A program made the translations under genes and the position numbers. Under the pieces are notes generated by a model. That model ran no database searches, was not told the DNA's origin, and worked only from the letters and a program-made list of their open reading frames with translations. From assembly GCF_000025925.1 (NCBI RefSeq), contig NC_014033.1:2430001-2462000 (forward strand): 32,000 nt of DNA, written 5' to 3'. Of this stretch, positions 1,045-16,960 are shown in pieces (position 1 is the stretch's first letter; each line of letters starts with the position of its first letter). Source of the DNA: Xylanibacter ruminicola 23. GTDB taxonomy: Bacteria > Bacteroidota > Bacteroidia > Bacteroidales > Bacteroidaceae.

Positions 1045-1680
1045 CTAAATTACGATATTAACTTCTTCTGGTGGTCCGGGCAGTTCTATTGAATCTGTAG
1101 TACCAACGCTCTTTCCACCAAGTCCAATAACATCAGATACCCATACGAAGAACTTCTTAAAAGAAGTAGCATCCATAGTGTCAAGTCTGAATACTTGGTC
1201 TGTCAACTGCTGAAGTGGTTCAACCTTCGCTTTTGGGCCTGCTGCACAAGCTACTATACTAGCAAAATTTAAACTCTTTACTTTCGGAATAATTTGATTA
1301 TAATCTTGTACATCACTGGGTTTTCCATCTGTCAATATAAACAAAAGTGGACGCCAATCACCCTTTTGTTCTGGAGTACCCCTTTTTACCTCCACAGCAA
1401 TTTTGTCACAAAGCATTTTTAAAGCTTTACCAAGGTGCGTCGGACCTGTATCTGGAGTCAGGATATCAGGCATTTGAAGGTTTTCGAGCTCCGTAAGAGG
1501 TAGAACTTGACTTACTTCTCTATCAAAGGTAATTATACTAATACATACTGTTTCAAGAGCATATGGGTCTTGGCGCAAGGTTGCAACCATATCAGCTAGC
1601 CCTACCTTAACACTCTCTATTGGTTCACCTTTCATAGAACCACTAGTATCAATCAATATATAAACTGGTAAATGTCTCAT
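1045..1680 (-). CDS. TerY-like vWA domain protein (paralog 2)
   Basis: 211-aa ORF MRHLPVYILIDTSGSMKGEPIESV.. with a DxSxS MIDAS motif, ..GDWRPLLFILTDGKPSD.. and FKKFFVWVSDVI. It lies 7 nt upstream of the next vWA gene. Its ATG overlaps the stop of the 4-TM gene (ATGA at 1680-1677). Confidence 0.85.
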   Translation of the reverse strand: MRHLPVYILIDTSGSMKGEPIESVKVGLADMVATLRQDPYALETVCISIITFDREVSQVLPLTELENLQMPDILTPDTGPTHLGKALKMLCDKIAVEVKRGTPEQKGDWRPLLFILTDGKPSDVQDYNQIIPKVKSLNFASIVACAAGPKAKVEPLQQLTDQVFRLDTMDATSFKKFFVWVSDVIGLGGKSVGTTDSIELPGPPEEVNIVI

Positions 1681-2180
1681 GAGTCTGTTTTATAACATAT
1701 TGCAAAGCCCTCATAGGCAGCAATTCCATAAACAATTAAACTAAAGAAATCAAAATCAGCAAATGCAATTTCAAAGAAATAAGTATTGTCAATCATTGTT
1801 AATGTCTCGAAATAGGCAAGTCCTTCTTCCTGGGCTATAAAACCAACATTCGTGAAGTAATCTCCCAATACACAAGACAATAAGGCAAAAAATCCGCCAA
1901 TGAGTGAAATAGGGATTGTTCGACCTCTCCCTATAAGATGAACTACATAACCAACAGCAAAACCCGCCAAAATACCCATAATCATCCATTGCTTTTGAGC
2001 ATTTACCGTAATCAAAGCCCAGAGACTGGCAATTAAAACACTAGACAATAGTCCGGCAATAATTGCAAAAACGAGATTTCCTTCCTGCTGGGGTATATAA
2101 TTGCTGTTATCTTCAGCATTAGAAGGGACTTCCTGCCCCTCAATAACTCTATTTAGTTTTTCAAAATCGTAATTTGCCAT
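1677..2180 (-). CDS. Small integral membrane protein (about 4 predicted TM helices), uncharacterised, embedded between vWA paralogs
   Basis: 167-aa ORF with a polar N-terminus (~35 aa) followed by hydrophobic stretches (LVFAIIAGLLSSVLIASLWALI, WMIMGILAGFAVGYVVHLI, ISLIGGFFALLSCVLGDYF, FFSLIVYGIAAYEGFAI). A 4-nt ATGA overlap with the downstream vWA gene suggests translational coupling. Confidence 0.7.
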   Translation of the reverse strand: MANYDFEKLNRVIEGQEVPSNAEDNSNYIPQQEGNLVFAIIAGLLSSVLIASLWALITVNAQKQWMIMGILAGFAVGYVVHLIGRGRTIPISLIGGFFALLSCVLGDYFTNVGFIAQEEGLAYFETLTMIDNTYFFEIAFADFDFFSLIVYGIAAYEGFAICYKTDS

Positions 2181-2244
2181 ATTTCCTAATCTTTAACAAT
2201 ATGAGGATGTAACAATAGCAGGCACACCCTCATATCATCTATTA

Positions 2245-2883
2245 TCATACAACAATGTTTACCTCTGGAGGTGGCGGTGGCAACTCGCTCATAGTAGCAA
2301 CATCACCGTGAGTATCCTCAACTTTTTGGCTTCCAGTGCTGATACTTGCACTTACCCACTTGAAGAATGCCTTGATTGTAGCACTATCTGCAGTGTCAAG
2401 TTGTACCACATTCTCTGTAATTTGCTTCAAAGTGTTGGTGTTTGCACCTTGACCAGCAGCACAAGCGACCACCATACCAAACTTACGCTTTCTAAACTCA
2501 TTCAGCCCCTTCTGCAAGTCATCTGTTGGTTCTCCGTCAGTCATAATGAATACGATGGGTTTCCAGTCGCCTTTAACTTCAGCTGTTGTCTTTACAATTT
2601 CTGTATCAACTTTCTGAGCCAGTAGATTCAGCGCCTCGCCTAGGGCTGTACAGCCACTCGCATCAATTACAGGCGGTTGAAACGAAGCCAATTCGGTTAG
2701 CGGAGCTATTTGTTGAGCACTCGAATTGAAGGTAATAATACTAATGTATGCTGTTTCCAAAGCATACGGATCACTTCTCAGTGTTGAGACAAGCGTCTGA
2801 ACGCCATTCTTCACAGCCTCAATAGGTTCACCATACATGGAACCAGAGGTATCAAGCAATAAATAAACAGGTAATCTTCTCAT
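2245..2883 (-). CDS. TerY-like vWA domain protein (paralog 1)
   Basis: 212-aa ORF MRRLPVYLLLDTSGSMYGEPIEAV..ALETAYISIITF..GDWKPIVFIMTDGEPTD..FFKWVSASI. It is collinear with the other two vWA paralogs and starts 12 nt after the upstream TerD gene. Confidence 0.85.
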   Translation of the reverse strand: MRRLPVYLLLDTSGSMYGEPIEAVKNGVQTLVSTLRSDPYALETAYISIITFNSSAQQIAPLTELASFQPPVIDASGCTALGEALNLLAQKVDTEIVKTTAEVKGDWKPIVFIMTDGEPTDDLQKGLNEFRKRKFGMVVACAAGQGANTNTLKQITENVVQLDTADSATIKAFFKWVSASISTGSQKVEDTHGDVATMSELPPPPPEVNIVV

Positions 2884-2895
2884 ATTTTGTTGTCT

Positions 2896-3561
2896 TTATT
2901 TGTTATAATCCTTAGCAACTCTCGCAATCGTAAGCGCGATTGAGCGGTCTTCAAAAGCATCTCCAATAGCAGCAAACTTCCACTCGCCATTTCGACGATA
3001 GAGTTTACCCATTACTAAAGCCCTCTTTCCTACACAGTCAGTTTTAGTTGCAACGTCATATTGCGCAAAAACTTCTTTCACCTTGGTTGGTGTTCCCTCA
3101 TACATACGAATAGATGCGTAGGGTATGCCTGAGAAATCTCCCTGATAATCATTGTTGTTATATATGTTCAAGAAGAAAACAATTGAGTTAACATTACTGC
3201 TTACACGAGCAAGGTCAACTGTAATAATCTCATTATCCAAGCCATCATCACCATCTTGATCTCCGGTAAGGTCATCACCTGTATGATGAAGTGCACGGTC
3301 ATTTGAATCAAGCTTACCTTGGGGAAGTCCTATTTTTCCCAAATTATATAAGGGAGACCAAATGTGATCGACAACTTCTCCTTTTTCATTGAATAACAAG
3401 CAACTCAAGTCTAAGTCAACATCAACAGTAGTTGTTGTCATTCCAAAGAAAGCTTTCTTAGTAATAGCTCCCCAGTTACATCCAACACAAAAGTTGGTTA
3501 GTTTTGCACCACTTCCTTTTTCAAGGTTGATGCGTTGTCCTTTTTCAAGTTTAATAGCCAT
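2896..3561 (-). CDS. TerD-family protein (longer paralog)
   Basis: 221-aa ORF MAIKLEKGQRINLEKG.. with DVDLDLSCLLF, the acidic Ca-site-like motif HHTGDDLTGDQDGDDGLDNEIITVDL, and the C-terminal RRNGEWKFAAIG typical of TerD/TerE/TerZ proteins. Confidence 0.85.
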   Translation of the reverse strand: MAIKLEKGQRINLEKGSGAKLTNFCVGCNWGAITKKAFFGMTTTTVDVDLDLSCLLFNEKGEVVDHIWSPLYNLGKIGLPQGKLDSNDRALHHTGDDLTGDQDGDDGLDNEIITVDLARVSSNVNSIVFFLNIYNNNDYQGDFSGIPYASIRMYEGTPTKVKEVFAQYDVATKTDCVGKRALVMGKLYRRNGEWKFAAIGDAFEDRSIALTIARVAKDYNK

Positions 3562-3572
3562 ATCCGTTTATT

Positions 3573-4208
3573 TTAGTCCTTACTACCTGGTTTATAAGTA
3601 AATCCCCAACCATATTGACGATCACAGTCACTGTGACTATCGTGGAAAGTTACAAGTTTCTTTACCGTAATAGAATTATCTCCTCCAAAATCAAGTTCAG
3701 CTATGGCACAAAAGCGTTTGCTGCTTGATTGTTGTCCCATTTCTACAATAATATCTTCATTGCCTGGTACCTTGACCTTTACAACTGCATTTGTTTCTGC
3801 CCACTTTGCAACACCTTCAAAGATGAATGTGTAAACTACGATTCGTTTAATGTCATTCACGCCTTTAGGATTGACGAGGATGGTTTCTCCAGAGGACGAA
3901 CCTCCGCCACGATCATCACCTTGATGCCATATAAAAGGCTTTTGGTCATAACAACCTTGACGCGTTACTTGATGACGGTTACCACCACGATTACGTGAGA
4001 ACTGTAGACCATCAATAAGCATTTTAGACCCATCACGCAGTTCATAGAAACAACCTAAATCAAGGTCAACCGGATTTCCAAACATCTGCTTTAAAAAGCC
4101 TCCTTTACTCCAGTCGAGATTAATAATAATCTCACCAGAGAAAGAGGAGCAACCTTTTTCAAGATTAATCCGATGCTGGTCACCTGACTTTTCGAGGACA
4201 ATAGCCAT
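3573..4208 (-). CDS. Divergent TerD-fold paralog (TerA/TerZ-like) with a degenerate acidic motif
   Basis: 211-aa ORF MAIVLEKSGDQHRINLEKG.. with VDLDLGCFYEL. The equivalent of the Ca motif reads HQGDDRGGGSSSGETILVNP. The gene sits between two canonical TerD genes with gaps of 11 nt and 2 nt. Confidence 0.7.
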   Translation of the reverse strand: MAIVLEKSGDQHRINLEKGCSSFSGEIIINLDWSKGGFLKQMFGNPVDLDLGCFYELRDGSKMLIDGLQFSRNRGGNRHQVTRQGCYDQKPFIWHQGDDRGGGSSSGETILVNPKGVNDIKRIVVYTFIFEGVAKWAETNAVVKVKVPGNEDIIVEMGQQSSSKRFCAIAELDFGGDNSITVKKLVTFHDSHSDCDRQYGWGFTYKPGSKD

Positions 4209-4210
4209 AA

Positions 4211-4768
4211 TTACTGGTATTTATTAACCAAAGCCTGTAAACCACCCTTATTACCGATTCCCATTGCTTCAAACTTCCATTCACCATTACGACGATACAG
4301 TCGGCCAAATTCCACGGCAGTTTCAATCGAGAAGTCTTCATCAAGATCATAACGAGCGATTTCCTCATTAGTGATCGAGTTATAAATTCGGATATAAGAG
4401 TTTCTCACTTGCCCAAAGTTCTGCTTTCTTTCTTCAGCCTTGTAGATAGTGGCTGTGAAGATAATTTCCTGAACTTGAGGGTCTACTTTAGTTAGATCAA
4501 CATTCAGAGTTTCATCATCGCCACCATCGCTATTACCACCAGTAAGATCGTCACCAGTAGATTCAACCGCTCCATCAGGAGACTTTTGGTTGTTGTAAAA
4601 TACAAAGTACTCGTCCTTAGGAAGTTTTTTGTTTGCTCCCAGCATAAACGCCGAAGCATCCAAATCAAAATCAAAACCGGTACCTTCGTTGGGGTCCCAT
4701 CCGAGTCCTACACTAACTTTTGACAGACCAATTTCAATACGCTGTCCTTTTTCCAAAGATATTGCCAT
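4211..4768 (-). CDS. terD: TerD-family protein (canonical ~190-aa form)
   Basis: 185-aa ORF MAISLEKGQRIEI..GLGWDP..FDFDLDASAFML..STGDDLTGGNSDGGDDETLNVDL..FGRLYRRNGEWKFEAMG. This is the textbook TerD/TerE pattern. Confidence 0.9.
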   Translation of the reverse strand: MAISLEKGQRIEIGLSKVSVGLGWDPNEGTGFDFDLDASAFMLGANKKLPKDEYFVFYNNQKSPDGAVESTGDDLTGGNSDGGDDETLNVDLTKVDPQVQEIIFTATIYKAEERKQNFGQVRNSYIRIYNSITNEEIARYDLDEDFSIETAVEFGRLYRRNGEWKFEAMGIGNKGGLQALVNKYQ

Positions 4769-4804
4769 AATTACTTTATTATATTATAAATGTTAATTAT
4801 GGTG

Positions 4805-4812
4805 CAAATATA
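4805..4812 (-). promoter_or_regulatory. Bacteroidetes -7 box TATATTTG (TAnnTTTG) upstream of the first TerD gene
   Basis: The plus strand reads caaatata, so the minus strand reads TATATTTG, about 37 nt upstream of the ATG at 4768. Confidence 0.5.
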
Positions 4813-4891
4813 AATCAATTAATTATAAACATCTGGATTGTTGCAACCTTGCAAGTGTATATCAATAGATTGAAGAAGAATCCATGCAATA

Positions 4892-6289
4892 TTACATAGC
4901 AAGCAATCGACCCCAGAAATCAGACTCTTCGAAAGAACATACTCTTGCTGTTACAGGATCATAACACAAGCAGAGTTCTTTTGGAATAGTCACACAATAA
5001 TTACCGAACATATTACGCTGAACCAAATAGTCATCAGCCTGATTTAGCAAGTCGCCTAACTGTCGAAATTGTCTTTTAATAAGACTAATCATAGGTAGAC
5101 GATTCTCTGGCAACTCTATTTGAGGGGCTTTTGTACGTTCTCCACCAAAATTTTCATATATTATTTCATATTTTCGCTGGATAGCGGCAATACGATGTTT
5201 GTACTTATCTAAAGACTTCACCCCGTTAGGCTTATTGAAATTAATACCTCCACTTGATGACTCTAATAAAAAAAGTGCATACAAGGCTTTTTCGCGACGA
5301 TGTAAACCAGTAATTTTACTATCCGCTTCTGGCAAAAGAATATCTCCATGCATCAAATCTATTACAACACTACTTCTTATTCCTTTTTTATATATAAAAG
5401 AATCAAATATTTGCTTATAAAAACCATTATATACAAAACGTTGTTTCCCCTCGTAAACAGGATTTAGAATACGAGGTTTATACATTGAAACAAAGGTATC
5501 AACGAAACGACGAACCGCAACCAATGCTTCTTCTTCAATAGACATTACTAGGAAGTTATCAATATTTCTACCTTTAATAGAGGATATGCCTATTCTGAAC
5601 ATAATCGATGGAAGAGAATGAGCAAGACCGTCCATTTTCATCTTTCCAACGATCTCGTTCTTACAGAAATCAGATGTACTAAGTGCCATTAATTGCTTTG
5701 CAAAAAGTTCTATCTGAGCTGTTGTTGCAGAAGGGTAAAGAAAGGAAATAAGCGTATGCAAATCTTCTTGTGCTAGAGCCCTATAATGTTCACCAACTTT
5801 TGGAATATAAACAAAGTTAAATCCAATAAGTCGCAACTCATTTAATATTTCACGATAGTGAACCAATATCTCACGATTTGTTTCTTTGTAATATTCACCT
5901 TCAACATATAATACTTGTGAGTTATCAAGCTTAATATTCTCAGGTAGTTCAACGGAATAAACCATAGAATTATTTGGAAATCTTTCAGAAAGACATGACA
6001 CTATCGCAATTAAAAACAAAGCTTCCTCCCTCGAACACGCATTATCAGAAAGCACCATACCTTTAAAGTCACCCCATAAATCTTGTTTTAAGCTAACGGA
6101 GGCATCATTTAAAGTTTGAAAAGCCTCTGCTAAAGTTATCGTTTCTGCGACAACCTCATCCTCGTGCTTAATATTATATTTTTGACGAATGCAATTAAGA
6201 TATACAATTTCTTGCATATCAATGATGGCATCAGCTTTTACCATGTCAGAAACAATACGTATAATACTTGCCCTTTCTAATTGCTTCAC
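4892..6289 (-). CDS. TerB-like N-terminal domain fused to an uncharacterised C-terminal region of about 360 aa
   Basis: 465-aa ORF. The N-terminal ~105 aa show the two-half TerB-type pattern (IIRIVSDMVKADAIIDMQEIVYL ... MVLSDNACSREEALFLIAIVSCL). I do not recognise the remainder. The called start is GTG at 6289..6287 and the next in-frame ATG is at codon 16, so the 5' end is uncertain. Confidence 0.6.
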   Translation of the reverse strand: MKQLERASIIRIVSDMVKADAIIDMQEIVYLNCIRQKYNIKHEDEVVAETITLAEAFQTLNDASVSLKQDLWGDFKGMVLSDNACSREEALFLIAIVSCLSERFPNNSMVYSVELPENIKLDNSQVLYVEGEYYKETNREILVHYREILNELRLIGFNFVYIPKVGEHYRALAQEDLHTLISFLYPSATTAQIELFAKQLMALSTSDFCKNEIVGKMKMDGLAHSLPSIMFRIGISSIKGRNIDNFLVMSIEEEALVAVRRFVDTFVSMYKPRILNPVYEGKQRFVYNGFYKQIFDSFIYKKGIRSSVVIDLMHGDILLPEADSKITGLHRREKALYALFLLESSSGGINFNKPNGVKSLDKYKHRIAAIQRKYEIIYENFGGERTKAPQIELPENRLPMISLIKRQFRQLGDLLNQADDYLVQRNMFGNYCVTIPKELCLCYDPVTARVCSFEESDFWGRLLAM

Positions 6290-6294
6290 ATTAG

Positions 6295-6680
6295 TATACT
6301 ATCATCCAAGGAGAATCCCAGAACTTGGCGATTTTCTGTAATTGGTTACTACATATAAAAGAAGCGTGGGAATCTCCTTGTTACTCGTCCCACCCTCCGA
6401 GGCTCTGGCATCGCCCTAACAGTCAGAACGAGCAACGCCGAAGCCCACGCCGATATGTATATAAACACACCTTTCTGCTTGAAGCCAATAATGGCTGTCA
6501 GCATAACCGATGTAGGATATTACATACCCATGGGCGTCATTGTTGCTTTGATTCCTCGACTGTTAGTTTGGAACTGCCAGATTCCGAAAGGTCAAGTACA
6601 AAGCGTCAAGTAACGCCTATCCTATATATAGGTCTCCACCCAGAAACAGACCCACCCGCAAGCGGGGCTTCGGTATGAAG
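6295..6680 (-). ncRNA. Candidate structured RNA: a long 5' leader of the TerB-like gene or an independent ncRNA (class unknown)
   Basis: A GC-rich island sits in an AT-rich intergenic region, starting ~7 nt downstream of a minus-strand TAnnTTTG box. It contains a 9-bp long-range inverted repeat (6438-6446 ccgaagccc / 6665-6673 gggcttcgg) and a 14-bp stem with one mismatch (6307-6320 / 6367-6380). Local hairpins have CUUG/UUCG-type loops on the minus strand. The ORFs overlapping the region (6325-6678 +, 6606-6938 -) do not look protein-like. Confidence 0.35.
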
Positions 6681-6686
6681 ACACTG

Positions 6687-6694
6687 CAAAGATA
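6687..6694 (-). promoter_or_regulatory. -7 box TATCTTTG with a TTTG -33 element (6718..6715), driving the GC-rich leader/ncRNA
   Basis: Plus-strand caaagata equals minus-strand TATCTTTG. A caaa at 6715-6718 gives a TTTG 20 nt upstream, which matches the Bacteroides consensus spacing. Confidence 0.55.
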
Positions 6695-6833
6695 ACGAGT
6701 TTTTCTGAACCAAACAAACTTTTACGAGAATTTTTGGAGAAATGTGTATTTCACAAGGCTTGTGGTGCACAATCTGACATAAATTTATGCTGCAAAAAAA
6801 TGAGATTACTATTGGTGTTTTCAAATTTATATG

Positions 6834-6861: not shown

Positions 6862-7770
6862 ATGGAAAGAATACATTCGGCAAAGGAGCTTTTTCTCAAT
6901 ACACTCATTAATATGGGTATCAAGTATGAGAGCCACAACTACGAAGATACCATCTGGTTTGACTACCAGGATATGGACTTTGAAGCAGAAGAAGATAAGG
7001 GAGGTAGGTACATAACCCTGGAGTATATGGACTGGAAAGAACTTCACGATGCCGAGGAAGCCTTAAGGATGCGGAGGATTATCAACAAGGTGAACAGGAA
7101 CAGTGATGTAGTTATCTCAACAACGGTAAAATTTACTTATTATCGCAGAAAAATACTATTCATAGAGGAGATTCCTAATATCGAGGACTACCTGCGTTCT
7201 GAACTTCAAGAGTTGATACGTATTTACGAGATGGTGAACGAAGCTCTACAGAAAGATAACGAGAATGAGAAGTCAGGCAAATGGCAACCTATAGACATCG
7301 AATCTACCCAAACCAAAGACTTGTTTATTAAAACCATCAGGGAAATGGGGTGCGATTACGAACCATGGAAGGACGAGGAATCGCGTTGTGAAAGCATCGT
7401 TTTTGATTACCAGACGGAAACGTATCGTGCAACCTTTTTCGAAGTAACAAAGAAAGTGTTATTAGAAAACCACTATAGCCTATACAATGTGGCGCTAAAC
7501 GACATGGATAAAGTAAACCAACTACGCGAGGTTGTAAACAAAGTGAATCAGGAGCATGATGCCGTTACTGTATACACGATCGACTGCGTTACTAATAAGA
7601 TGTATGCCGAAGCCAGTCATACCGTGCCCTTCATGGCAGAAATACCCAATTTACTTACTTATCTTCATTCCATACTGAACGACCTCTATTTGGTGCGGAT
7701 GGACATTAAATGCGAAATGGAAGCTGATGAGATTGAAGAACAAAGGATTATGGATCGAGAGGCCAATTAA
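6862..7770 (+). CDS. Uncharacterised protein made of two tandem homologous ~140-aa domains (possibly a YbjN / secretion-chaperone-like fold)
   Basis: 302-aa ORF with a clear internal repeat. AKELFLNTLINMGIKYE matches TKDLFIKTIREMGCDYE. IWFDYQDMDF matches IVFDYQTETY. RRIINKVNRNSDVV matches REVVNKVNQEHDAV. FIEEIPNIEDYL matches FMAEIPNLLTYL. Confidence 0.7.
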   Translation: MERIHSAKELFLNTLINMGIKYESHNYEDTIWFDYQDMDFEAEEDKGGRYITLEYMDWKELHDAEEALRMRRIINKVNRNSDVVISTTVKFTYYRRKILFIEEIPNIEDYLRSELQELIRIYEMVNEALQKDNENEKSGKWQPIDIESTQTKDLFIKTIREMGCDYEPWKDEESRCESIVFDYQTETYRATFFEVTKKVLLENHYSLYNVALNDMDKVNQLREVVNKVNQEHDAVTVYTIDCVTNKMYAEASHTVPFMAEIPNLLTYLHSILNDLYLVRMDIKCEMEADEIEEQRIMDREAN

Positions 7771-7867
7771 ACATAAGAATCTCCACTTCTTTCAGCGTCT
7801 CGTCAGCTCGATCAAGTCTGTACTGTACAAGCGCATCGCGGCTTGGGGCATCAAGAGTTTCGTTCAT
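7748..7867 (-). pseudogene. Truncated HEPN toxin remnant (39 codons) downstream of the MNT gene
   Basis: The ATG at 7867 overlaps the MNT stop (ATGA). Translation gives MNETLDAPSRDALVQYRLDRADETLKEVEIL, which looks like a HEPN N-terminal helix, followed by unrelated MFNWPLDP and a stop. The tail overlaps the 3' end of the convergent 6862-7770 gene. Confidence 0.6.
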
Positions 7868-8178
7868 AACGTAATTCCTTCGTTCATTACATTAATATAG
7901 AAAGGTGTTTTGAATGGGCGATTCTCCCATTGCCTGCGAAGCATAATCATAGGACTGATGAGAACACCTGTGCTGAGTTCAAGATCATATAGGGCTCCTG
8001 ACACAGCTTCCTCTCTTTTTAAGTCTCTAGCTTCCCCCTCAAGTAGAACGAGCACATCAATATCGCTATCGGCACGAGCATCACCTCGTGCTTCAGACCC
8101 ATACAGAATTGCCGTTGCCGTGGGCTCGGTCTTTTTGATGGTCTGTTTTATTCGTTCTACAATCTCTGGTCTTCGCAT
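7864..8178 (-). CDS. MNT-type nucleotidyltransferase (antitoxin-like partner of HEPN)
   Basis: MRRPEIVERIKQTIK..ILYGSEARGDARADSDIDVLVLL.. carries the GSxxRG...DxD Pol-beta-type NTase motif. I moved the start to the ATG at 8178, because the track's 157-aa version adds an S/P-rich extension that overlaps the next gene. Confidence 0.8.
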   Translation of the reverse strand: MRRPEIVERIKQTIKKTEPTATAILYGSEARGDARADSDIDVLVLLEGEARDLKREEAVSGALYDLELSTGVLISPMIMLRRQWENRPFKTPFYINVMNEGITL

Positions 8179-8197
8179 TACCTTTATATTTCTGCGG

Positions 8198-8205
8198 CAA
8201 AGATA
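8198..8205 (-). promoter_or_regulatory. -7 box TATCTTTG upstream of the MNT gene
   Basis: Plus-strand caaagata lies 20 nt upstream of the ATG at 8178. Confidence 0.5.
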
Positions 8206-8245
8206 AGAAGAAAAACGTGAACTTTGCAAATATTTAGGGAAAAAT

Positions 8246-8620
8246 TTACCAACCTGCGGGGAGGACGATATTGGGGACTTCGTGAGCTTTGGCGAAGAGG
8301 GGGGAGATTTCCTCGTTGGTGAAGCCAGCGATGCCACAACCTACGCGGGTTACTAAGAACGTGAGGTCGGGACGGGTTTTGGCGAATTCGATGAATTCAT
8401 CTACATAGGGTTTGATGGCATCAACACCGCCATGCATGGTGGGTATGCCATAGCTCTGCCCTTGCAGACCAACGCCCTGCCCCCAGATAGCACCAAACTT
8501 ACGATAGGCCAACAAGGCAGCCCCGCCACCATGCGCCCCAGCCAGGTTGCTACCAAACACAAACACCTCGTTCTCACCAAGCTCCGTTATCCGCTCCGGC
8601 GTCACTCTTTTCTGTTCCAT
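8246..8620 (-). CDS. Conserved small protein with a GSNxxGxHGxGAA motif (phage-associated family, function unknown)
   Basis: 124-aa ORF ..ENEVFVFGSNLAGAHGGGAALLAYRKFGAIWGQGVGLQGQSYGIPT.. I recall this motif from a widespread phage/prophage-associated family. The exact family name is not verified. Confidence 0.6.
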   Translation of the reverse strand: MEQKRVTPERITELGENEVFVFGSNLAGAHGGGAALLAYRKFGAIWGQGVGLQGQSYGIPTMHGGVDAIKPYVDEFIEFAKTRPDLTFLVTRVGCGIAGFTNEEISPLFAKAHEVPNIVLPAGW

Positions 8621-8647
8621 ATACTTGTATTTAGAAAGTCATCGCTG

Positions 8648-8655
8648 CAAATATA
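8648..8655 (-). promoter_or_regulatory. -7 box TATATTTG for the 8246-8620 gene
   Basis: Plus-strand caaatata lies 28 nt upstream of the ATG at 8620. Confidence 0.5.
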
Positions 8656-8686
8656 CAACTTTTTCTGGAATATAAACAAAAAGGCA

Positions 8687-8723
8687 CAAAAAAAATCGCA
8701 ACAGGTTTTTGGCCTATTGCGAT
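8687..8723 (-). terminator. Rho-independent terminator after the small peptide gene
   Basis: The minus strand reads ATCGCAATAGGCCAAAAACCTGTTGCGAT, with 7+3 bp of stem, followed by T8. Confidence 0.6.
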
Positions 8724-8745
8724 TTGATACTTGGGGGTGGATGCT

Positions 8746-8847
8746 CTACGATCCTACACAGCTGGTGGCGCCGAGGGCGGTTACGATGGCTGTAGCGATG
8801 GATGCAATCATCTGGACGATGAACTTCAGTGTTTCTTTCTTTGTCAT
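8746..8847 (-). CDS. 33-aa hydrophobic peptide of the Bacteroidales 'smalltalk' type (not in the ORF track)
   Basis: My own translation gives MTKKETLKFIVQMIASIATAIVTALGATSCVGS followed by a stop. It has a basic N-terminus, one TM-like helix and a C-terminal SC motif. It sits beside an HU-like gene, as I recall for this family. Confidence 0.5.
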   Translation of the reverse strand: MTKKETLKFIVQMIASIATAIVTALGATSCVGS

Positions 8848-8888
8848 AATGGTTTAGGTTATATGGTTAATACTTTGTGTTTCATGGT

Positions 8889-8917
8889 AAAAATGGTGGG
8901 GCTTGTGCCCCAACCAT
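8889..8917 (-). terminator. Rho-independent terminator immediately after the HU-like gene
   Basis: The minus strand reads ATGGTTGGGGCACAAGCCCCACCAT followed by TTTTT. The stem starts at the stop codon. Confidence 0.55.
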
Positions 8918-9468
8918 TAGTCGCCAATGGGCTCGTGGCCACCGCCGCCGGTATTGCCGCCACCGCCAGTGTTTCCACCGCCACCGGTATTGCCACCCTG
9001 AGTGCCGCCACCGGTATTACCTGGCTTATCATCCTCGATAAGCTGGCCAGCAAACGCCTCGGCATTTACAAACTCGGCCTTCTTGATGAACTCACGGCTT
9101 GAGATGTTGGTCTCGGCCTCCTGATCGGGCAGGAATCGGATGTGGAGGGCCTTCAGGTTCTTCTGAGGTGAAAAGTCCTCCTTCTTCAGAGCACCACCCT
9201 TCTCGTTCTCCAAGGTGGTAAAGAAGATGCCCAGACCGTCGATCTTGACGCGCTTGGAGTTCAGGAGCATCTCCAACAGACAACTACGGAACTTCTCCAG
9301 CACTCCGAACACCACGTCGGGAGTGTAGATACTGCCGTGCTCGGCGATGTGGTTGGCCATCTTACGAGTGTTCAGCGTCTCGACGGTCTTGCTGTGGGCA
9401 AACCACTTACCGAAAATCTTCGAATTCTTGATGTTGTTTTGCTTCAACAGATAAAAGATCTTTGCCAT
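8917..9468 (-). CDS. Bacteroidetes HU-related DNA-binding protein with a C-terminal Gly/Asn/Thr repeat tail
   Basis: 183-aa ORF MAKIFYLLKQNNIKNSKIFGKWFAH..TRKMANHIAEHGSIYT..VKIDGLGIF.. matches the pattern of the HU_rel family. The tail reads GNTGGGTQGGNTGGGGNTGGGGNTGGGG. Confidence 0.8.
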   Translation of the reverse strand: MAKIFYLLKQNNIKNSKIFGKWFAHSKTVETLNTRKMANHIAEHGSIYTPDVVFGVLEKFRSCLLEMLLNSKRVKIDGLGIFFTTLENEKGGALKKEDFSPQKNLKALHIRFLPDQEAETNISSREFIKKAEFVNAEAFAGQLIEDDKPGNTGGGTQGGNTGGGGNTGGGGNTGGGGHEPIGD

Positions 9469-9514
9469 AATGTGTAAAAGGTTTTAAATGGGTTAATTAT
9501 TAAGTTTGACGATG

Positions 9515-9522
9515 CAAAGGTA
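9515..9522 (-). promoter_or_regulatory. -7 box TACCTTTG for the HU-like gene
   Basis: Plus-strand caaaggta, about 46 nt upstream of the ATG at 9468. It is followed by GCATCGTCAAA, the same sequence that follows the box at 11734. Confidence 0.55.
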
Positions 9523-9674
9523 CTACTATAGAATGTAATCTACAAACTTTTTAGGCCTCCACTTAGTTAAACAGTGTTAACAAAAATCAGCTACCACTTC
9601 ATCGCTCACAATCCGTAACTTCGTGATTTACGATCTAACGGATATCGATGAGATAAGTGCCACCTCGTTCCAGG

Positions 9675-9848
9675 CACGCAGTATCACAGTAACATAACCG
9701 ATTTTGCCTGTTCTGCAGAAAAACTGGCTATATTGAATATTATATATATTAAATATATATAATATTTATAATGCTATAATTATATATATTACCACCTATC
9801 GCCGCCTAACCTACTCGCAGTATCCTTATGTTACTGTGATACTGCGTG
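9675..9848. repeat. 174-bp element bounded by perfect 23-bp inverted repeats (CACGCAGTATCACAGTAACATAA). It could be MITE-like, an invertible segment, or an origin-like structure.
   Basis: 9675-9697 is the exact reverse complement of 9826-9848. The interior is AT-rich and includes a 31-bp AT-only palindrome at 9736-9766. An extra partial forward copy (cgcagtatc) lies at 9816-9824. Confidence 0.75.
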
Positions 9849-9908
9849 GAAAAAGATATATAAGAACAAAAATCGCGCATAAATCTTGTATATCTAAGAA
9901 TTTTGCAA

Positions 9909-9916
9909 TACCTTTG
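9909..9916 (+). promoter_or_regulatory. -7 box TACCTTTG only 4 nt before the ATG at 9921
   Basis: The sequence is TACCTTTGcaatATG. This implies a leaderless or near-leaderless mRNA. Confidence 0.45.
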
Positions 9917-9920
9917 CAAT

Positions 9921-10811
9921 ATGGAATATTACATATGCCCATTCAGGATAGCAAGCAGCGAGAAATGGTACGCCCAGCCCGATGGTTTTCAACCACAGGA
10001 AGTCCTGGCGACAGTGACGCGAGATGACTTCCTACGACAGAACAAAAAATTACTATTCACTGACAAAAGCGGCAACCACATCTATTCGCACAAATACATA
10101 TACCAACCCAAGGATGGCATAGCCGTGCTTAAACTAGCAAACAGGTACGTAGATAGTGATGACGAAGAATTCTGGAAAAGACGGCCTTGGGAAGACCGAT
10201 TCTTTACAGTTATCGTCATAGTCAGTAGAAAGGATGGTACTTGTTTCTATGTTGAGGATAACGAGCGTGCATTTGATAGGGTTGAAGACGTGGTGAAGAT
10301 ACTGTGCAGAGGGCTTAACCATAGTCTGTCGAGTCATCAATTATTTATAGGTTCTGATTACAACTTCATCAAGCAAACCGATAACTTTGCCCTGATGTCG
10401 GCTTGTGCTATTATCAACCAGCAACTTGAAGACTCACTCAACCTTCAGTTTGGTACATGCGACGCGATGAAACATGAGTATGACGAGAATGCCCTATTAG
10501 CAGCACAACTGTTTACCAGCGCCTTAACCGACCAACGCAAAGCCAGCATGGTTATATCGTTGCTCTACGAACTTACCAAAGGCAGGAAAGACAGGAAAGC
10601 GCTGATGTGCGGACTACGAGCGGCTATGGATGCGGGGGTGATAGTAAAACCAAGCTACAACGATTTTATTACGGTGTTTAACTGTGGTCATCTGGTATCA
10701 AAAGAGCAGTATAGCACTTATACCAACCCAAATTATCACGGATACAAGAAATACGAACTCTACAAAAACGCCTACATCAGATTCAAACAGATTAAGGAAG
10801 CAGTCATCTAA
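9921..10811 (+). CDS. Hypothetical protein (296 aa from the ATG at 9921; the track start is 9903)
   Basis: Long ORF with protein-like composition (MEYYICPFRIASSEKWYAQPDG...). I recognise no family. I prefer the 9921 start because the -7 box overlaps the 9903 start. Confidence 0.6.
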   Translation: MEYYICPFRIASSEKWYAQPDGFQPQEVLATVTRDDFLRQNKKLLFTDKSGNHIYSHKYIYQPKDGIAVLKLANRYVDSDDEEFWKRRPWEDRFFTVIVIVSRKDGTCFYVEDNERAFDRVEDVVKILCRGLNHSLSSHQLFIGSDYNFIKQTDNFALMSACAIINQQLEDSLNLQFGTCDAMKHEYDENALLAAQLFTSALTDQRKASMVISLLYELTKGRKDRKALMCGLRAAMDAGVIVKPSYNDFITVFNCGHLVSKEQYSTYTNPNYHGYKKYELYKNAYIRFKQIKEAVI

Positions 10812-10919
10812 ACACACCAAAACGCTTAACTTTTCTGAACTTATCACAACTATTCTGGTCAAATCGGCACTCGGCCGAAATAATCAGTTTTTTTATTTGC
10901 GCATATCAGCCGGATGCTA

Positions 10920-10927
10920 TATTTTTG
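10920..10927 (+). promoter_or_regulatory. -7 box TATTTTTG upstream of the 11003 gene
   Basis: The match to TAnnTTTG lies 75 nt upstream of the ATG at 11003. Confidence 0.4.
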
Positions 10928-11002
10928 CGGCCGCTGAGCACAACAATAATTAAAAACCTGAGACAGGCATGGGCCCATTCTGTTTCTTAAACTTTAACAA
11001 CA

Positions 11003-11650
11003 ATGAAGCAGAACAACAATGAAGTGCAGTACATTTGGCACGACGGGGCTACTATCCCCGAAGACCTGCTGATTAGCATGGCTAAAACAGCAGGATGTTA
11101 CGAATCGGCTAAGCCTTATCTATTTTCGTTGATGGCGCATGGCCTTAACCATGGTATCCGCAACTATATATATAAGGTAAACGAGATACGTGATTATTAC
11201 CACGTGGTACCTATCCCCATAGCCAAGGAGATGGGACAGGGCACTACCTGCGACCAAACCCATCACGCCGATGTGGCAAGGAAGCGATACAAAGCCATGA
11301 ACCAGGAAGGTCGGGAACTGGTAGTAACCAACAGTCTGAAGCTACTGCTAACCAATCACCGCAACCTATTCTGCTCGAAAACCGATTGGGCGGGTATCTA
11401 CCTGGTGATCAAGGACAGACTGAATGGACGAATAAGCAAAACCCGATTTACACGACTGATGATGAACCTTACCCGCGACTGGTGGCCCGGGGAGCTACAG
11501 ATAGGCGAACGTACACTGAGTAACTTTGGTAGATGTGTGACCTACGAAGACCGACTGGAGGCTTACTACGACATGGATAATAACCCATGGGCCGAACTTT
11601 GCGACACCTATTGGAACCTACTGATGCAACAGATTCTGACGCATAACTGA
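11003..11650 (+). CDS. Hypothetical protein (215 aa)
   Basis: ORF with protein-like composition. No motif recognised. Confidence 0.55.
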   Translation: MKQNNNEVQYIWHDGATIPEDLLISMAKTAGCYESAKPYLFSLMAHGLNHGIRNYIYKVNEIRDYYHVVPIPIAKEMGQGTTCDQTHHADVARKRYKAMNQEGRELVVTNSLKLLLTNHRNLFCSKTDWAGIYLVIKDRLNGRISKTRFTRLMMNLTRDWWPGELQIGERTLSNFGRCVTYEDRLEAYYDMDNNPWAELCDTYWNLLMQQILTHN

Positions 11651-11704
11651 CGCTGTTTATCGCCCATCGACGCAAATAACGACGCGATTCTGACGCACTG
11701 ACGC
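11632..11704. repeat. Cluster of six GACGC cores, including a 12-nt direct repeat GATTCTGACGCA (11632-11643 and 11686-11697)
   Basis: GACGC occurs at 11638, 11649, 11669, 11681, 11692 and 11700. The cluster spans the stop of the 11003-11650 gene and lies ~30 nt upstream of the next promoter box. Confidence 0.6.
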
Positions 11705-11733
11705 ATCAGCCCCACCACCTATTTATTTCATCA

Positions 11734-11741
11734 TATCTTTG
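11734..11741 (+). promoter_or_regulatory. -7 box TATCTTTG for the 11773 gene
   Basis: The sequence is TATCTTTGCATCGTCAAA, 31 nt upstream of the ATG at 11773. Confidence 0.55.
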
Positions 11742-11772
11742 CATCGTCAAAAAGAAATTAAAGCGAACAAGT

Positions 11773-12099
11773 ATGAGAAAAATTGAAGAAAAAATCACGG
11801 TTACAACCAAGCCCAACGGCTATGCGTTGACAGTAAACGAGAAGGAGTATTTATACTTTAACACGTTAGATCTGGTAAAGGGTGTTTGCATTCATGTGGG
11901 ATTGGGACGAAAGAGTCCGACCACCAAGTATGGACGCGATGCGATACTGAAGGCTATGGGCGATGGAAGTCTGGAGCGCAAGCTACAGAAAGAGGTAAAC
12001 GAACTGAAATCACAAGTGTTTAATTTAAAGAACGCGCTGCATGAAAGCAAAGAAGAACAAAAGGGGAATAACGGTCAAGAAGGGCTGTATCTCATGTAA
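11773..12099 (+). CDS. Hypothetical protein (108 aa) with a coiled-coil-like C-terminus
   Basis: ORF directly downstream of a promoter box. The C-terminal half is rich in K/E/L/Q (LERKLQKEVNELKSQVFNLKNALHESKEEQ). Confidence 0.5.
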   Translation: MRKIEEKITVTTKPNGYALTVNEKEYLYFNTLDLVKGVCIHVGLGRKSPTTKYGRDAILKAMGDGSLERKLQKEVNELKSQVFNLKNALHESKEEQKGNNGQEGLYLM

Positions 12100-12376
12100 G
12101 TGGAAGATGTACGATGGTGAGGGCAACCGCATCTGCACCCTGTTCCGTAACAACGAGAAAGGTTACTGCAACAAATGGCGCATGACCCATGCCCTGAGGA
12201 ACGCCGGTACACCATATGGCAACATTCATACCAAACCCTATCTGCGCTATGCCATGGAGATAGCGCAGGACGAGCAAAGGTGGATAGCCCAAGGTTACAA
12301 CATCACCCCCACCCCGATCGAAGAGATGCGAAATAACTATTTAAAAGAACATAAAACTTATAACATCGATTTTTAA
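12041..12376 (+). CDS. Hypothetical Cys-containing small protein (111 aa; start uncertain)
   Basis: The ORF overlaps the previous gene by 59 nt if the ATG at 12041 is used. The alternative ATG at 12107 removes the CxxC of CISCKWKMYDGEGNRIC...YC. Confidence 0.45.
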   Translation: MKAKKNKRGITVKKGCISCKWKMYDGEGNRICTLFRNNEKGYCNKWRMTHALRNAGTPYGNIHTKPYLRYAMEIAQDEQRWIAQGYNITPTPIEEMRNNYLKEHKTYNIDF

Positions 12377-12383
12377 CTAACTT

Positions 12384-12728
12384 ATGAAAAAGAAACTTAT
12401 CAACATTCAGGACATCACCGTAGTTATGAACCGTGCATCGAGAGGCCTTACCATTGAGGGCGTTATGTTTATCGACAAGCACACACACCATCTGACGTTC
12501 AAGCCTTACAACCTGGCCAAGTATCAGCCTGGCTACTACCAGCGAACCAAACCCAAACTGATTAAGAAACTGCCATGGGGAGCACTTAAACAGAGTATTC
12601 GCAACAACATTCTGCGACTGAGTGTGCCACAGGCGTTGGGAACAGCGCAAACCATAGCCATCTTTAACAACCATGTGGCCCAGGCCAACGATGCGCTGAT
12701 TGATTTAGAACTCAAAGAGTTCTGTTGA
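12384..12728 (+). CDS. Hypothetical protein (114 aa)
   Basis: The ORF starts 7 nt after the previous stop and lies directly upstream of the primase-like gene. No motif recognised. Confidence 0.5.
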   Translation: MKKKLINIQDITVVMNRASRGLTIEGVMFIDKHTHHLTFKPYNLAKYQPGYYQRTKPKLIKKLPWGALKQSIRNNILRLSVPQALGTAQTIAIFNNHVAQANDALIDLELKEFC

Positions 12729-12732
12729 CTTT

Positions 12733-12788
12733 AAACATGAAACATGAAACATTAAAGATTAAAGATTAAAGATTAAAGATTAAACATG
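12733..12788 (+). repeat. Eight tandem heptamers AAA(C/G)AT(G/T); the last unit contains the start codon of the primase-like gene
   Basis: The units read aaacatg, aaacatg, aaacatt, aaagatt x4, aaacatg. The ATG at 12786-12788 is the end of unit 8. Confidence 0.9.
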
Positions 12789-15215: not shown

Positions 15216-15216
15216 T

Positions 15217-15234
15217 CGCAGTATCACAGTAACA
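15217..15234 (+). repeat. Third copy (18 bp, direct orientation) of the 9675-9697 repeat core, CGCAGTATCACAGTAACA
   Basis: Exact match to 9677-9694. It begins 2 nt after the primase-like stop codon. Confidence 0.85.
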
Positions 15235-15242
15235 AATACATT

Positions 15243-15270: not shown

Positions 15271-15273
15271 ATT

Positions 15274-16960
<1,687 letters not shown>

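Follow-up and report, generated by a model that had tools for sequence, protein, structure and literature searches.

Processive antitermination can be brought about by cis-acting RNAs such as put of phage HK022 (~70 nt) and the EAR of the Bacillus eps operon (~120 nt); to our knowledge, no put- or EAR-like mechanism has been described in Bacteroidota so far. Other long operons rely on NusG paralogs that are recruited through leader elements, such as RfaH with its ops site and LoaP, which is linked to a leader RNA hairpin and a terminator, as treated in part of the report PMC11685472. The UpxY proteins work at pause sites that are associated with hairpins in the leaders of operons; at class-1 opsX sites, 41-42 nt separate the pause from the downstream start codon of the Y gene (Saba et al. 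2024, PMC11685472).

Here we describe an intergenic element of Xylanibacter ruminicola 23, located in a stretch of 32,000 nucleotides (NC_014033.1, positions 2,430,001 to 2,462,000; hereafter the window, by whose first nucleotide all positions are counted). With moderate confidence we propose that this element encodes a cis-acting 5′ leader, in which a conditional terminator or antitermination would gate an 11-kb cargo operon.

An RNA on the minus strand and its relatives

The G+C content is 0.44-0.55 over positions 6300-6700 against 0.30-0.35 in both flanks, in agreement with the GC-rich core described in an earlier reading of the sequence alone. That sequence-only reading proposed an element of about 390 nt. 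The structured RNA is real, but the RNA proper comprises only ~327 nt (roughly 330), from ~6681 to 6355, and ends in a stem and a U-tract; the remainder, 6354-6290, is the spacer between the RNA and a start codon. The element is flanked by the following features:

6687..6718, minus strand: Bacteroidetes-type promoter as read from the sequence, with the -33 element TTTG at 6718-6715, a 20-nt spacer and the -7 box TATCTTTG at 6694-6687
4892..6289, minus strand: first gene of the operon, 465 aa, with a GTG start at 6289 that agrees with the ATG of its homologues

The promoter had already been named by the earlier reading and is found again in the family of relatives described below: a TAnnTTTG box occurs at the equivalent upstream place in ~53 of 60 members, whereas it is essentially absent from the downstream spacers (only 2 spacers harbour one). 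From its position, transcription is predicted to start at ~6681 (+/- 3).

Folding energies were -154.5 kcal/mol (z -5.4) for the minus strand and -113.3 kcal/mol (z -2.9) for the plus strand, and the G-U pairs of the conserved helices are compatible with the minus strand only. The strand proposed earlier is supported, as is a genuine structured RNA driven by this promoter. The loop CC-GAAA-GG (6584-6591), previously seen as fitting the plus strand, is the 5′ strand of a long-range helix of the minus strand (helix b below). The hallmarks of RNase P RNA, tmRNA and SRP RNA had been missing from the sequence, and Rfam agrees. None of the 4227 covariance models of Rfam 15 (including RNase P, tmRNA, SRP, 6S, riboswitches, GOLLD, ROOL, HEARO and EAR) gave a match at the gathering score in the whole window, and there was no match at E <= 10 inside 6290-6700. 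Six relatives also gave no match at gathering scores; the sole Rfam match in the relative L129 was tfoR at chance level (15.8 bits, with a gathering score of 70).

Relatives were recovered in at least 129 loci from gut and rumen metagenomes, viral contigs, Prevotella MAGs and Phocaeicola plasmids, with more than 120 metagenomic loci, as a lower bound, carrying the RNA module. A first retrieval pattern, GGCGTGGGCN{2,6}GGCGTTGC, was too loose (120 mostly random matches on viral contigs, only 3 of them real by blastn) and was superseded by a two-block pattern. The relatives were handled by nhmmer and by MAFFT-based pair counts, methods that do not lean towards the proposed structure. Pair counts took the place of a covariance model because the core with its variable insert is too large to calibrate and pseudoknots cannot be modelled. 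A phage collection searched for the RNA gave no match. The literature on NusG/UpxY, on structured RNA of Bacteroidales ICEs and on the signature 12-mer yielded no publication describing it, and the signature sequence was absent from the first 200 of 408 supplement files of a human-microbiome structured-RNA catalogue.

The window copy belongs to a subtype that we call A, with a sister subtype B. An UpxY-family antiterminator is encoded downstream in 56 of 69 subtype-B loci versus none of 43 subtype-A loci, and the window encodes no UpxY homologue. The subtype-B protein matches NF033644 at 137-146 bits (cutoff 100), which identifies it as an UpxY-family NusG paralog, and the distance from the end of the U-tract to its start codon is fixed at 41-47 nt. 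Several loci adjoin conjugation or mobilisation genes (MobC-like coupling protein, integrases), and the RNA is also found in plain chromosomal and plasmid settings far from transfer genes. The RNA represents a widespread, previously undescribed family that forms a modular part of Bacteroidales mobile elements ahead of cargo operons.

Covarying helices of the core

Sixty non-redundant members, with 45-71% identity to the window copy, were used to count base pairs, and nine helices are backed by covariation. In the helix sets tested, 97-98% of the cells of the pair counts are paired, compared with 30-51% when the 3′ partners are slid, and the observed covariation score was reached by none of 500 shuffles. 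The elements of the core are, from 5′ to 3′ of the RNA:

6632..6682, minus strand: 5′ hairpin domain as seen in MFE folds, with the closing stem GUCUUC 6682-6677 / GGAGAC 6637-6632
6673-6665, minus strand: strand S1, CCGAAGCCC, inside the 5′ hairpin domain and complementary to the S2 region
6666-6655, minus strand: hairpin CCCG-CUUG-CGGG, inside the 5′ hairpin domain
6602..6617, minus strand: hairpin Px, GGCGU 6617-6613 with ACGCU 6606-6602 and the loop UACUUG; 99.1% of cells paired in 60 sequences
6555..6596, minus strand: hairpin a, CUUGAC 6596-6591 with GUCGAG 6560-6555; its 30-nt loop holds the 5′ strands of helices b and c
6585..6592, minus strand: 5′ strand of helix b, ACCUUUCG, long-range kissing interaction with CGGAGGGU at 6399-6392
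6575..6581, minus strand: 5′ strand of helix c, UCUGGCA, with UGCCAGA 6410-6404; extends the kissing interaction
6533..6538, minus strand: 5′ strand of helix d, GACGCC, with GGCGUU 6439-6434; 95% paired
6452..6528, minus strand: helix e, GGUAUGU 6528-6522 with ACAUAUC 6458-6452; 96% paired, enclosing a domain of variable length (6521-6459)
6380..6436, minus strand: hairpin f, GUUGCUCGUUC 6436-6426 with GGACGAGUAAC 6390-6380; its loop holds the 3′ strands of c (6410-6404) and b (6399-6392)

The fold shown by covariation thus consists of the 5′ hairpin domain, Px, a, the nested helices d and e around the variable domain, and f, with the loops of a and f paired to each other. Together, helices b and c form a 15-bp loop-loop (kissing) pairing between hairpins a and f, which lie ~190 nt apart. 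For helix b, 96% of cells are paired versus 33-51% with the partner slid, and its five central pairs occur in 4-5 Watson-Crick types each, double-sided changes being present in 26-34 of the 60 sequences. It is also compensated in members outside the defining set, namely as ACGAUCGAU/AUCGAUCGU in L205 and as GCUUAUCG/CAAUAAGC in L249. Helix c is 99.8% paired; one of its positions is A-U in 34 sequences and G-C in 25. It reads CUUCGCA/UGCGAAG in L205 and UCUUGCA/UGCGAGA in L249. Since helices b and c cross a and f, they may coexist with them as a pseudoknot or belong to alternative states; either fits the pair counts.

Hairpin f has 11 pairs (98.8% paired), four of them changed on both sides (e.g. 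U-A versus C-G in 30 versus 29 sequences), and hairpin a contains two pairs with double-sided changes, seen in 22 and 27 of the 60 sequences. One pair of helix d is seen as U-A, U-G and C-G, and the inner pair of helix e is A-U or U-A in 25 sequences each. The domain inside helix e ranges from 24 to 167 nt, its lengths showing no bias to multiples of 3. In five relatives, an extra hairpin of ~30 nt is inserted in the loop of Px. Read by eye, the 5′ closing stem is compensated in subtype-A relatives (GUUUUC/GGGAAC versus GUCUUC/GGAGAC). In addition, the core contains many conserved unpaired nucleotides.

The structure drawn by the earlier reading lacked the main architecture, namely the long-range kissing pairings (helices b and c), hairpin f and, as described below, the terminator stem S2:S4. 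Its CCCG-CUUG-CGGG hairpin is present, one base away from where it had been placed, whereas its GC-UUCG-GC (6445-6438) is probably no hairpin and falls in the switching segment S2.

Putative switching strands, the proposed operon gating and its alternatives

Three further elements are located at or beyond the 3′ half of the core:

6438..6451, minus strand: switching segment S2, GGCGUGGG 6451-6444 overlapping GGGCUUCGG 6446-6438; complementary to both S1 and S4
6355..6371, minus strand: strand S4, UCCCACGCU at 6371-6363, and the U-tract UCUUUUAU at 6362-6355; terminator-like
6306..6328, minus strand: spacer hairpin CCAAG / CUUGG, 6328-6324 with 6310-6306 and a GGGA-containing loop, as read from the sequence

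S4 can pair either with S2 or, alternatively, with S3 (GUGGGA, 6393-6388). Both S2:S4 (GGCGUGGG/CCCACGCU, 8 bp) and S3:S4 (GUGGGA/UCCCAC) are followed by UUCUUUUAU at 6364-6355, and this terminator-like arrangement of a G+C-rich stem directly before a U-tract makes 6371-6355 a predicted intrinsic terminator. It was overlooked by a simple scanner because its loop exceeds 8 nt. All members finish with YYCACGC and a U run, the layout of stem and U-tract being universal, and in the window the 3′ domain 6460-6355 has a folding energy of -45.3 kcal/mol, its closing stem S2:S4 ending right at the U-tract. S2:S4 is 99.8% paired and varies between G-C and G-U only; as S2 was fixed by the retrieval pattern, neither S1:S2 nor S2:S4 is able to show true covariation. 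However, GGCGUGGG is kept in L205b and L249, both of which lie outside the selection by that pattern. For S3:S4, 32 sequences have G-C where 21 have A-U, and S3 is absent in L249. The idea of S3:S4 as the universal terminator hairpin was weakened by the Phocaeicola copy without S3 in which S2:S4 is retained.

The complementarity between S1 and S2 extends over 9-17 bp across the family, in two registers against one S2 segment. In the window, the 9-bp pairing noted by the earlier reading (6673-6665 with 6446-6438) is exact and represents the local version of this family-wide pairing of the 5′ strand, but taken alone it is at chance level, being matched by 38 of 100 shuffles. Close relatives pair over up to 17 bp, and L249 has no obvious S1. 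When the transcript is truncated before the 3′ domain, S1:S2 is closed in the fold, whereas the MFE structure of the full-length RNA is rearranged. Beyond the U-tract, 6320-6306 in the spacer is complementary to the S4 flank 6380-6367 (13 pairs and one mismatch; the 14-bp stem of the earlier reading). In subtype A only, a corresponding complement to S4 of 8-14 bp lies ~42-51 nt past S4, and its sequences covary. This conserved pairing could arise in read-through transcripts only.

Downstream, the 465-aa gene is followed in the window by genes for TerD, a 211-aa protein, TerD, VWA, a 167-aa protein and VWA (ORFs and Pfam), and past the window edge by VWA/TerY_C, PP2C and a protein kinase. The operon has at least 12 genes (TerD / VWA / TerY_C / PP2C / kinase), and is visible as a complete 11-kb unit on one strand in L250. 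The two 302-aa ORFs are unrelated and not paralogues. The 465-aa protein had been labelled TerB-like, which we could not confirm, as Pfam, NCBIfam and PADLOC gave no match even at E <= 5 and a homologue and the cluster names read 'hypothetical protein' only. A leader specific to the Ter locus was rejected: six homologous 465-aa/TerD loci include three with the RNA (L002, L005 and L006) and three without it (L001, L003 and L004), and elsewhere this RNA is found ahead of operons that have nothing in common with it, dozens of them in all. The operons behind the RNA encode TerD/VWA, STAND NTPases, AbiGi, FHA, HSP70-like, MACPF and LRR surface proteins, glycosyltransferases and UpxY, mostly conflict- or defence-type cargo together with miscellaneous genes, and not capsule loci. 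Without the Ter link, the ligand of metal or nucleoside type suggested earlier loses its support. Because the RNA stands before such different mobile-element operons, its most likely role is to gate their transcription, and not to sense something peculiar to the Ter genes.

The gene that follows is encoded on the strand of the RNA in 53 of 54 cases, whereas the upstream neighbour shares this strand in 27 of 36; the spacers to the next gene, mostly 41-112 nt, carry no promoter. With the promoter upstream, this argues for a cis-acting leader, and together with the terminator-like 3′ end it bears out the leader reading first proposed from the letters. We infer the transcription start, the 3′ end, termination and the switch from sequence features. 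Transcription from the Bacteroidetes promoter would produce the structured leader, in which S1 would take S2 and close the whole core. As long as S1:S2 and the kissing core hold, S4 would be left without a partner and the polymerase would read through into the operon; otherwise S2:S4 would form, transcription would stop and an RNA of ~330 nt would be released. In subtype B, the balance would most likely be tipped by the UpxY-family paralog encoded just past the U-tract, resulting in positive feedback. That part of the model is not directly applicable to the window, which lacks such a gene; in subtype A, this role could fall to a UpxY supplied in trans, to a different factor, or to a put/EAR-type action of the leader itself on the polymerase. 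The long operon behind the window copy fits a need for processive transcription.

Among the alternatives, a stand-alone structured ncRNA with its own promoter and an efficient terminator, serving the mobile element in trans or as an RNP (transfer, maintenance, immunity) and leaving its neighbours unregulated, is possible but doubtful. The RNA has its own promoter and a strong stem with a U-tract, a strong constitutive terminator would suit a stand-alone RNA just as well, the large pseudoknotted fold and its conserved unpaired nucleotides resemble other large mobile-element RNAs of unknown function, and the RNA sequence is independent of which genes lie downstream. What speaks against it is the orientation of the next gene, the short promoterless spacers and the constant distance to the UpxY start codon; moreover, the subtype-A complementarity between terminator strand and spacer needs a read-through RNA. 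The earlier reading had offered such an ncRNA as its other option, which is disfavoured by gene orientation and spacing.

A small-molecule or ion riboswitch, with the core as an aptamer for a Ter-linked metabolite (metal or nucleoside-like) and the terminator as expression platform, appears unlikely. Its complex conserved core, with covarying helices that include pseudoknotted long-range ones, and the strand shared by closing helix and terminator would suit an ON-type transcriptional riboswitch. However, the downstream genes have no common metabolic theme or pathway, homologous 465-aa/TerD loci exist without the RNA, and the association is with mobile elements and not with a pathway.

Structured single-stranded DNA promoters occur in the leading regions of plasmids. 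This precedent, and the conjugation or mobilisation neighbours of several loci, could point to a single-strand promoter, an origin or a recombination site used in conjugative transfer, but we regard such a DNA element as very improbable: the G-U (G-T) wobbles are in the strand that is sense for the genes downstream and would become C-A mismatches on the template strand, an ordinary promoter box of double-stranded DNA stands before the element and a U-tract at its end, and copies reside in chromosomal and plasmid settings far from transfer genes. A decayed protein-coding fragment or a chance GC-rich stretch, suggested by a 117-aa ORF (6325-6678, plus strand) and other short ORFs that overlap the element, is refuted by the compensatory substitutions in the helices, by indel lengths without preference for multiples of 3 and by the lack of a consistently open frame (the longest stretch without a stop codon spans 66% of the core in the median and exceeds 80% in only 15 of 60 members), and its probability is next to nil.

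Returning to the gating leader, a broader proposal is put forward only tentatively, namely that Bacteroidales mobile elements carry a new class of riboregulator, large and pseudoknotted through kissing loops, to which the RNA would belong. Such a regulator might set the transcription of cargo and defence operons by sensing a cellular signal directly (e.g. infection, transfer or stress) or by modifying RNA polymerase on its own, with the UpxY-coupled subtype as an evolutionary variant. Few bacteria of the human gut are as abundant as Segatella/Prevotella and Phocaeicola, and their mobile elements bear genes for defence, antagonism and surface variation. One conserved RNA module fronts cargo operons of dozens of unrelated kinds, and the UpxY protein cluster linked to it has ~3000 members. 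If the model is true, the biology of UpxY and NusG paralogs would reach past capsule loci, a large pseudoknotted RNA would be added to the catalogue of folds, and a handle to predict or engineer cargo expression in gut Bacteroidales would be available. The RNA also marks intergenic regions that current annotation pipelines leave blank, for instance on a Phocaeicola dorei plasmid.

Comparison with known systems

The RNA shares its size class, a pseudoknotted conserved fold and an association with mobile DNA with GOLLD, ROOL, HEARO/omega RNA and raiA. However, it matches none of their Rfam models, and these RNAs lack the strict same-strand, short-spacer tie to a downstream operon. As in ON-type transcriptional riboswitches (e.g. 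the pbuE adenine riboswitch), S2, as the 3′ strand of the proposed closing helix, would double as the 5′ strand of the terminator stem, so that termination would be prevented once the sensor domain is closed. Here, the putative sensor is three to five times larger, its regulon has no coherent function, and the region from S2 to the 3′ strand of the terminator itself belongs to the conserved core.

Like put and EAR, the RNA is structured and starts long operons, in the window's subtype A without a dedicated adjacent protein gene, and put is phage-borne. Both are much smaller than the present RNA and have no terminator of their own at the end, and Rfam gives no match here; the window fits by position only (start of an 11-kb operon, no adjacent factor gene). 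In the RfaH/ops and LoaP systems, a specialised NusG paralog acts on, or is encoded with, long operons of horizontal origin, and it depends on a leader element in which a terminator is contained or which a terminator follows. Their elements are short (the 12-nt ops site, a small hairpin), are found in Proteobacteria and Firmicutes and have no large conserved fold.

The opsX leaders of Bacteroides capsular-polysaccharide loci are likewise located between a Bacteroidetes promoter and a long operon (PMC11685472). Subtype B shares with them an UpxY-family first gene, which is missing in the window's subtype. Moreover, its hairpin and U-rich site lie 41-47 nt before the Y start codon, compared with 41-42 nt for the pause at class-1 opsX sites, a likeness in position. 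For the known leaders, variability and action through a short DNA/RNA pause element are described, and no conserved pseudoknotted RNA of ~300-450 nt (PMC11685472). Finally, opsX leaders serve capsule loci, whereas the operons behind the present RNA are cargo of mobile elements.

The element and its operon in the window

The 570-bp gap between the 465-aa ORF (4892-6289, minus strand) and the ORF starting at 6862 (plus strand) has a GC-rich core, with a GC content of 0.44-0.55 across 6300-6700 versus 0.30-0.35 in the flanks. All strings named in the sequence-only reading were found in the sequence, including the proposed promoter (TATCTTTG at 6694-6687, minus strand, with TTTG 20 nt upstream). 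The 9-bp complementarity between 6673-6665 and 6446-6438 is exact, the suggested 14-bp stem corresponds to a 13+1-bp complementarity (6380-6367 with 6320-6306), and the CCCG-CUUG-CGGG hairpin was located at 6666-6655. The choice of the minus strand was also borne out, as this strand folds far better (-154.5 kcal/mol, z -5.4) than the plus strand (-113.3 kcal/mol, z -2.9). When the whole window was searched against Rfam 15, nothing was found at gathering score and, inside the element, nothing at E <= 10. A protein-coding reading was rejected, the region being non-coding.

The window copy heads a one-strand operon of ~11 kb and at least 12 genes, which covers 1045-6289 (minus strand) and continues past the left edge. 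The order is the 465-aa gene, TerD, a 211-aa gene, TerD, VWA, a 167-aa gene, VWA and VWA/TerY_C, followed by a PP2C phosphatase, a Ser/Thr kinase, further genes and a PrsW protease. From VWA/TerY_C onward the genes lie outside the window; the equivalent of the full operon was found on a fetched locus (L250, 10001-21398). This TerD/VWA operon is of the TerY-phosphorylation-triad type. The label 'TerB-like' for the gene downstream of the element could not be confirmed, and no UpxY homologue was found within the window.

The operon sits in an island ending near 15.7 kb. The island-like block adjoining the element (6862-15723) encodes a 302-aa protein with a weak Cas2-like match (PADLOC E 5.8e-5), an MntA-like nucleotidyltransferase (7864-8337) overlapping an A1S_2505-type ORF (8246-8620), HU-HIG (8917-9468), a BT4734-like primase (12786-15215) and Peptidase M15 (15274-15723). 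To its right are core chromosomal genes (esterase, acyl-CoA dehydrogenase, ETF, SprA, RuvA and PurN).

Members of the family and their neighbouring genes

Six loci with homologues of the 465-aa gene were compared. The upstream region of L002 aligns with the element and L005 and L006 hold a shifted copy; in L001, L003 and L004, no copy of the RNA was found upstream of the gene homologue, also by nhmmer. Further members were retrieved with a two-block DNA pattern from the conserved part (ATCGGCGTGGGC and TGCYAGAGCC); both blocks are invariant in the collected set by construction, which fixes segment S2 (6451-6438) and the 3′ strand of helix c. The pattern matched five viral contigs and at least 120 contigs from metagenomes of the human gut, the rumen and the guts of other animals. 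In total, the family comprises at least 129 instances (90 unique, 60 non-redundant), and the 60 non-redundant members are 45-71% identical to the window copy. It extends to Bacteroidaceae plasmids, as the RNA is present in an unannotated intergenic region on two Phocaeicola plasmids. The element is absent from Rfam 15, and no paper describing it was found in the literature searched; literature beyond that scope may hold one.

One plasmid copy (L249, 5866-6106) corresponds to 53941-54181 of the Phocaeicola dorei plasmid NZ_CP072250.1. It lies ahead of a gene for a hypothetical protein, in a ~1-kb intergenic region for which no feature is listed, and has neither segment S3 (6393-6388 in the window) nor an obvious 5′ strand S1 (6673-6665). 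The metagenome contig L205 carries two divergent copies ~3.7 kb apart, at 2172-2463 (minus strand) and 6129-6395 (plus strand).

The RNA occupies a strict leader-like position ahead of variable mobile-element operons. In 53 of 54 cases the gene that follows has the same orientation as the RNA, compared to 27 of 36 for the upstream neighbour, and the spacers after the RNA are short, with a promoter box in only two. The downstream genes are extremely diverse across loci, with Pfam matches to TerD, VWA, FHA, AAA/STAND NTPases, HSP70-like, AbiGi, MACPF, BspA-type LRR, glycosyltransferases, LytTR and P-type ATPase. On the upstream side, neighbours include genes for a MobC-like coupling protein, an excisionase-like HTH protein and tandem tyrosine integrases.

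Two subtypes were distinguished, A (that of the window) and its sister B, which is coupled to UpxY. A first gene of ~242 aa is present in 56 of 69 subtype-B loci versus 0 of 43 subtype-A loci; its product is a UpxY-family NusG-paralog antiterminator (NF033644, 137-146 bits, cutoff 100), so named in Segatella copri and belonging to a cluster of 2963 members. In subtype B the UpxY start codon lies 41-47 nt past the U-tract. The mobile-element UpxY proteins have an N-terminal extension of 65-95 residues before the NGN domain (profile match from residue 68-97; for example L129 7146-7871 and L006 2164-2976).

Conserved helices

Support for helices was taken from a plain MAFFT alignment (A3), unfitted to any structure, by a scan of all column pairs and explicit pair counts. 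S4 is the segment 6371-6363, before the U-tract.

Helices of the element from pair counts in the MAFFT alignment
6617-6613 with 6606-6602, minus strand: helix Px
6596-6591 with 6560-6555, minus strand: helix a
6592-6585 with 6399-6392, minus strand: helix b
6581-6575 with 6410-6404, minus strand: helix c
6538-6533 with 6439-6434, minus strand: helix d
6528-6522 with 6458-6452, minus strand: helix e
6436-6426 with 6390-6380, minus strand: helix f
6451-6444 with 6370-6363, minus strand: S2:S4
6393-6388 with 6371-6366, minus strand: S3:S4

Across the helices, 97-98% of cells are paired versus 30-51% when the partners are slid by 1-3 columns, and the observed covariation score was reached by 0 of 500 shuffles. 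Helix b provides decisive evidence for the predicted structure: each of its five central pairs shows 4-5 Watson-Crick types, with both sides changed in 26-34 of 60 sequences. Both-side changes were also found at four pairs in helix f and two in helix a. Two divergent members outside the helix-defining set are also compensated, namely the second L205 copy (L205b), which escaped the retrieval pattern and is fully compensated in both helices (helix b ACGAUCGAU/AUCGAUCGU, helix c CUUCGCA/UGCGAAG), and L249 (helix b GCUUAUCG/CAAUAAGC, helix c UCUUGCA/UGCGAGA).

The loop of hairpin a holds the 5′ strands of b and c, and the loop of hairpin f their 3′ strands; b and c together make up a predicted 15-bp loop-loop (kissing) interaction joining two hairpins ~190 nt apart. 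Helices a, b, c and f may coexist as a pseudoknot or represent alternating states. The MFE structure of the full RNA under the nearest-neighbour model contains b and c, whereas RNAalifold on the alignment yields f and S2:S4. The alignment establishes a conserved RNA family with a predicted pseudoknotted fold.

The domain within helix e is variable (24-167 nt). An extra hairpin of ~30 nt inside the Px loop (A3 columns 334-368; L138, L158, L168, L180 and L245) is an insertion of variable length, as is typical of peripheral RNA elements. Family-wide, GUGGGA-like strings recur 3-4 times per RNA in the 5′ domain, S2, S3 and spacer loop (window 6646-6641, 6448-6443, 6393-6388 and 6320-6316), with CCCAC-type complements in S1 (subtype B) and S4. 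These strings could allow several alternative pairings or be a repeated protein-binding motif.

RNA ends and candidate mechanism

The RNA carries its own putative promoter motif, a TAnnTTTG box found upstream in ~53 of 60 members. Relative to the anchor, this box is located between -205 and -310 in subtype A, and around -360 in subtype B. These positions give RNA lengths of ~330 nt and ~450 nt, respectively. The 3′ end is terminator-like, with YYCACGC and then a U run in every member. For the window copy, a folding energy of -45.3 kcal/mol was obtained for the 3′ domain (6460-6355), which S2:S4 closes directly before UUCUUUUAU. S3:S4 offers a smaller, local alternative pairing and shows a single G-C/A-U exchange (32 versus 21 sequences); because the Phocaeicola copy without S3 retains S2:S4, we take the latter as the conserved terminator stem.

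In nearly all members S2 is also complementary to S1, in two different registers: AGYYYACGCCG with CGGCGUGGGCU (10-12 bp), or CAAUGCCGAAGCCCAUG with CGUGGGCUUCGGCGUUG (up to 17 bp). In the window S1:S2 amounts to just 9 bp, by itself no more than expected by chance; in the predicted fold of a transcript ending ahead of the 3′ domain, S1:S2 is nevertheless closed. Sharing of S2 by closing helix and terminator suggests the layout of an ON-type transcriptional switch.

The spacer of subtype A contains a hairpin ~45 nt past the terminator strand, whose stem is variable and covaries and whose GGGAG(U)C loop is conserved. It was seen only in this subtype without UpxY (window 6306-6328; also L144, L146, L181 and L189). 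The hairpin with its GGGAGUC-type loop is complementary to S4 and its 5′ flank (8-14 bp, covarying), and the 14-bp stem proposed earlier is the window version of this complementarity. As this pairing is possible in read-through RNA only, it argues that read-through transcripts matter. The hairpin might act in translation control or RNA processing.

We infer that the RNA works in cis, either as a conditional terminator or as a leader for antitermination. The switch would consist of S1, S2 and S4; what is read out would be the folding or binding state of the kissing core. The partner in subtype A might be a trans-acting UpxY or some other factor or ligand; alternatively, the RNA itself might act on polymerase. 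The main rival, a stand-alone ncRNA, is possible, but gene orientation, spacing and the complementarity of the spacer speak against it. Three other readings are unlikely or refuted, namely a metabolite riboswitch specific to Ter, a gene remnant and an ssDNA element.

In the leaders of capsule operons, recruitment of UpxY proteins takes place at pause sites associated with hairpins, and the Y start codon lies 41-42 nt downstream (PMC11685472). Subtype B shows a strikingly similar geometry. However, no large conserved RNA was described for those leaders, and the operons studied here are not capsule loci.
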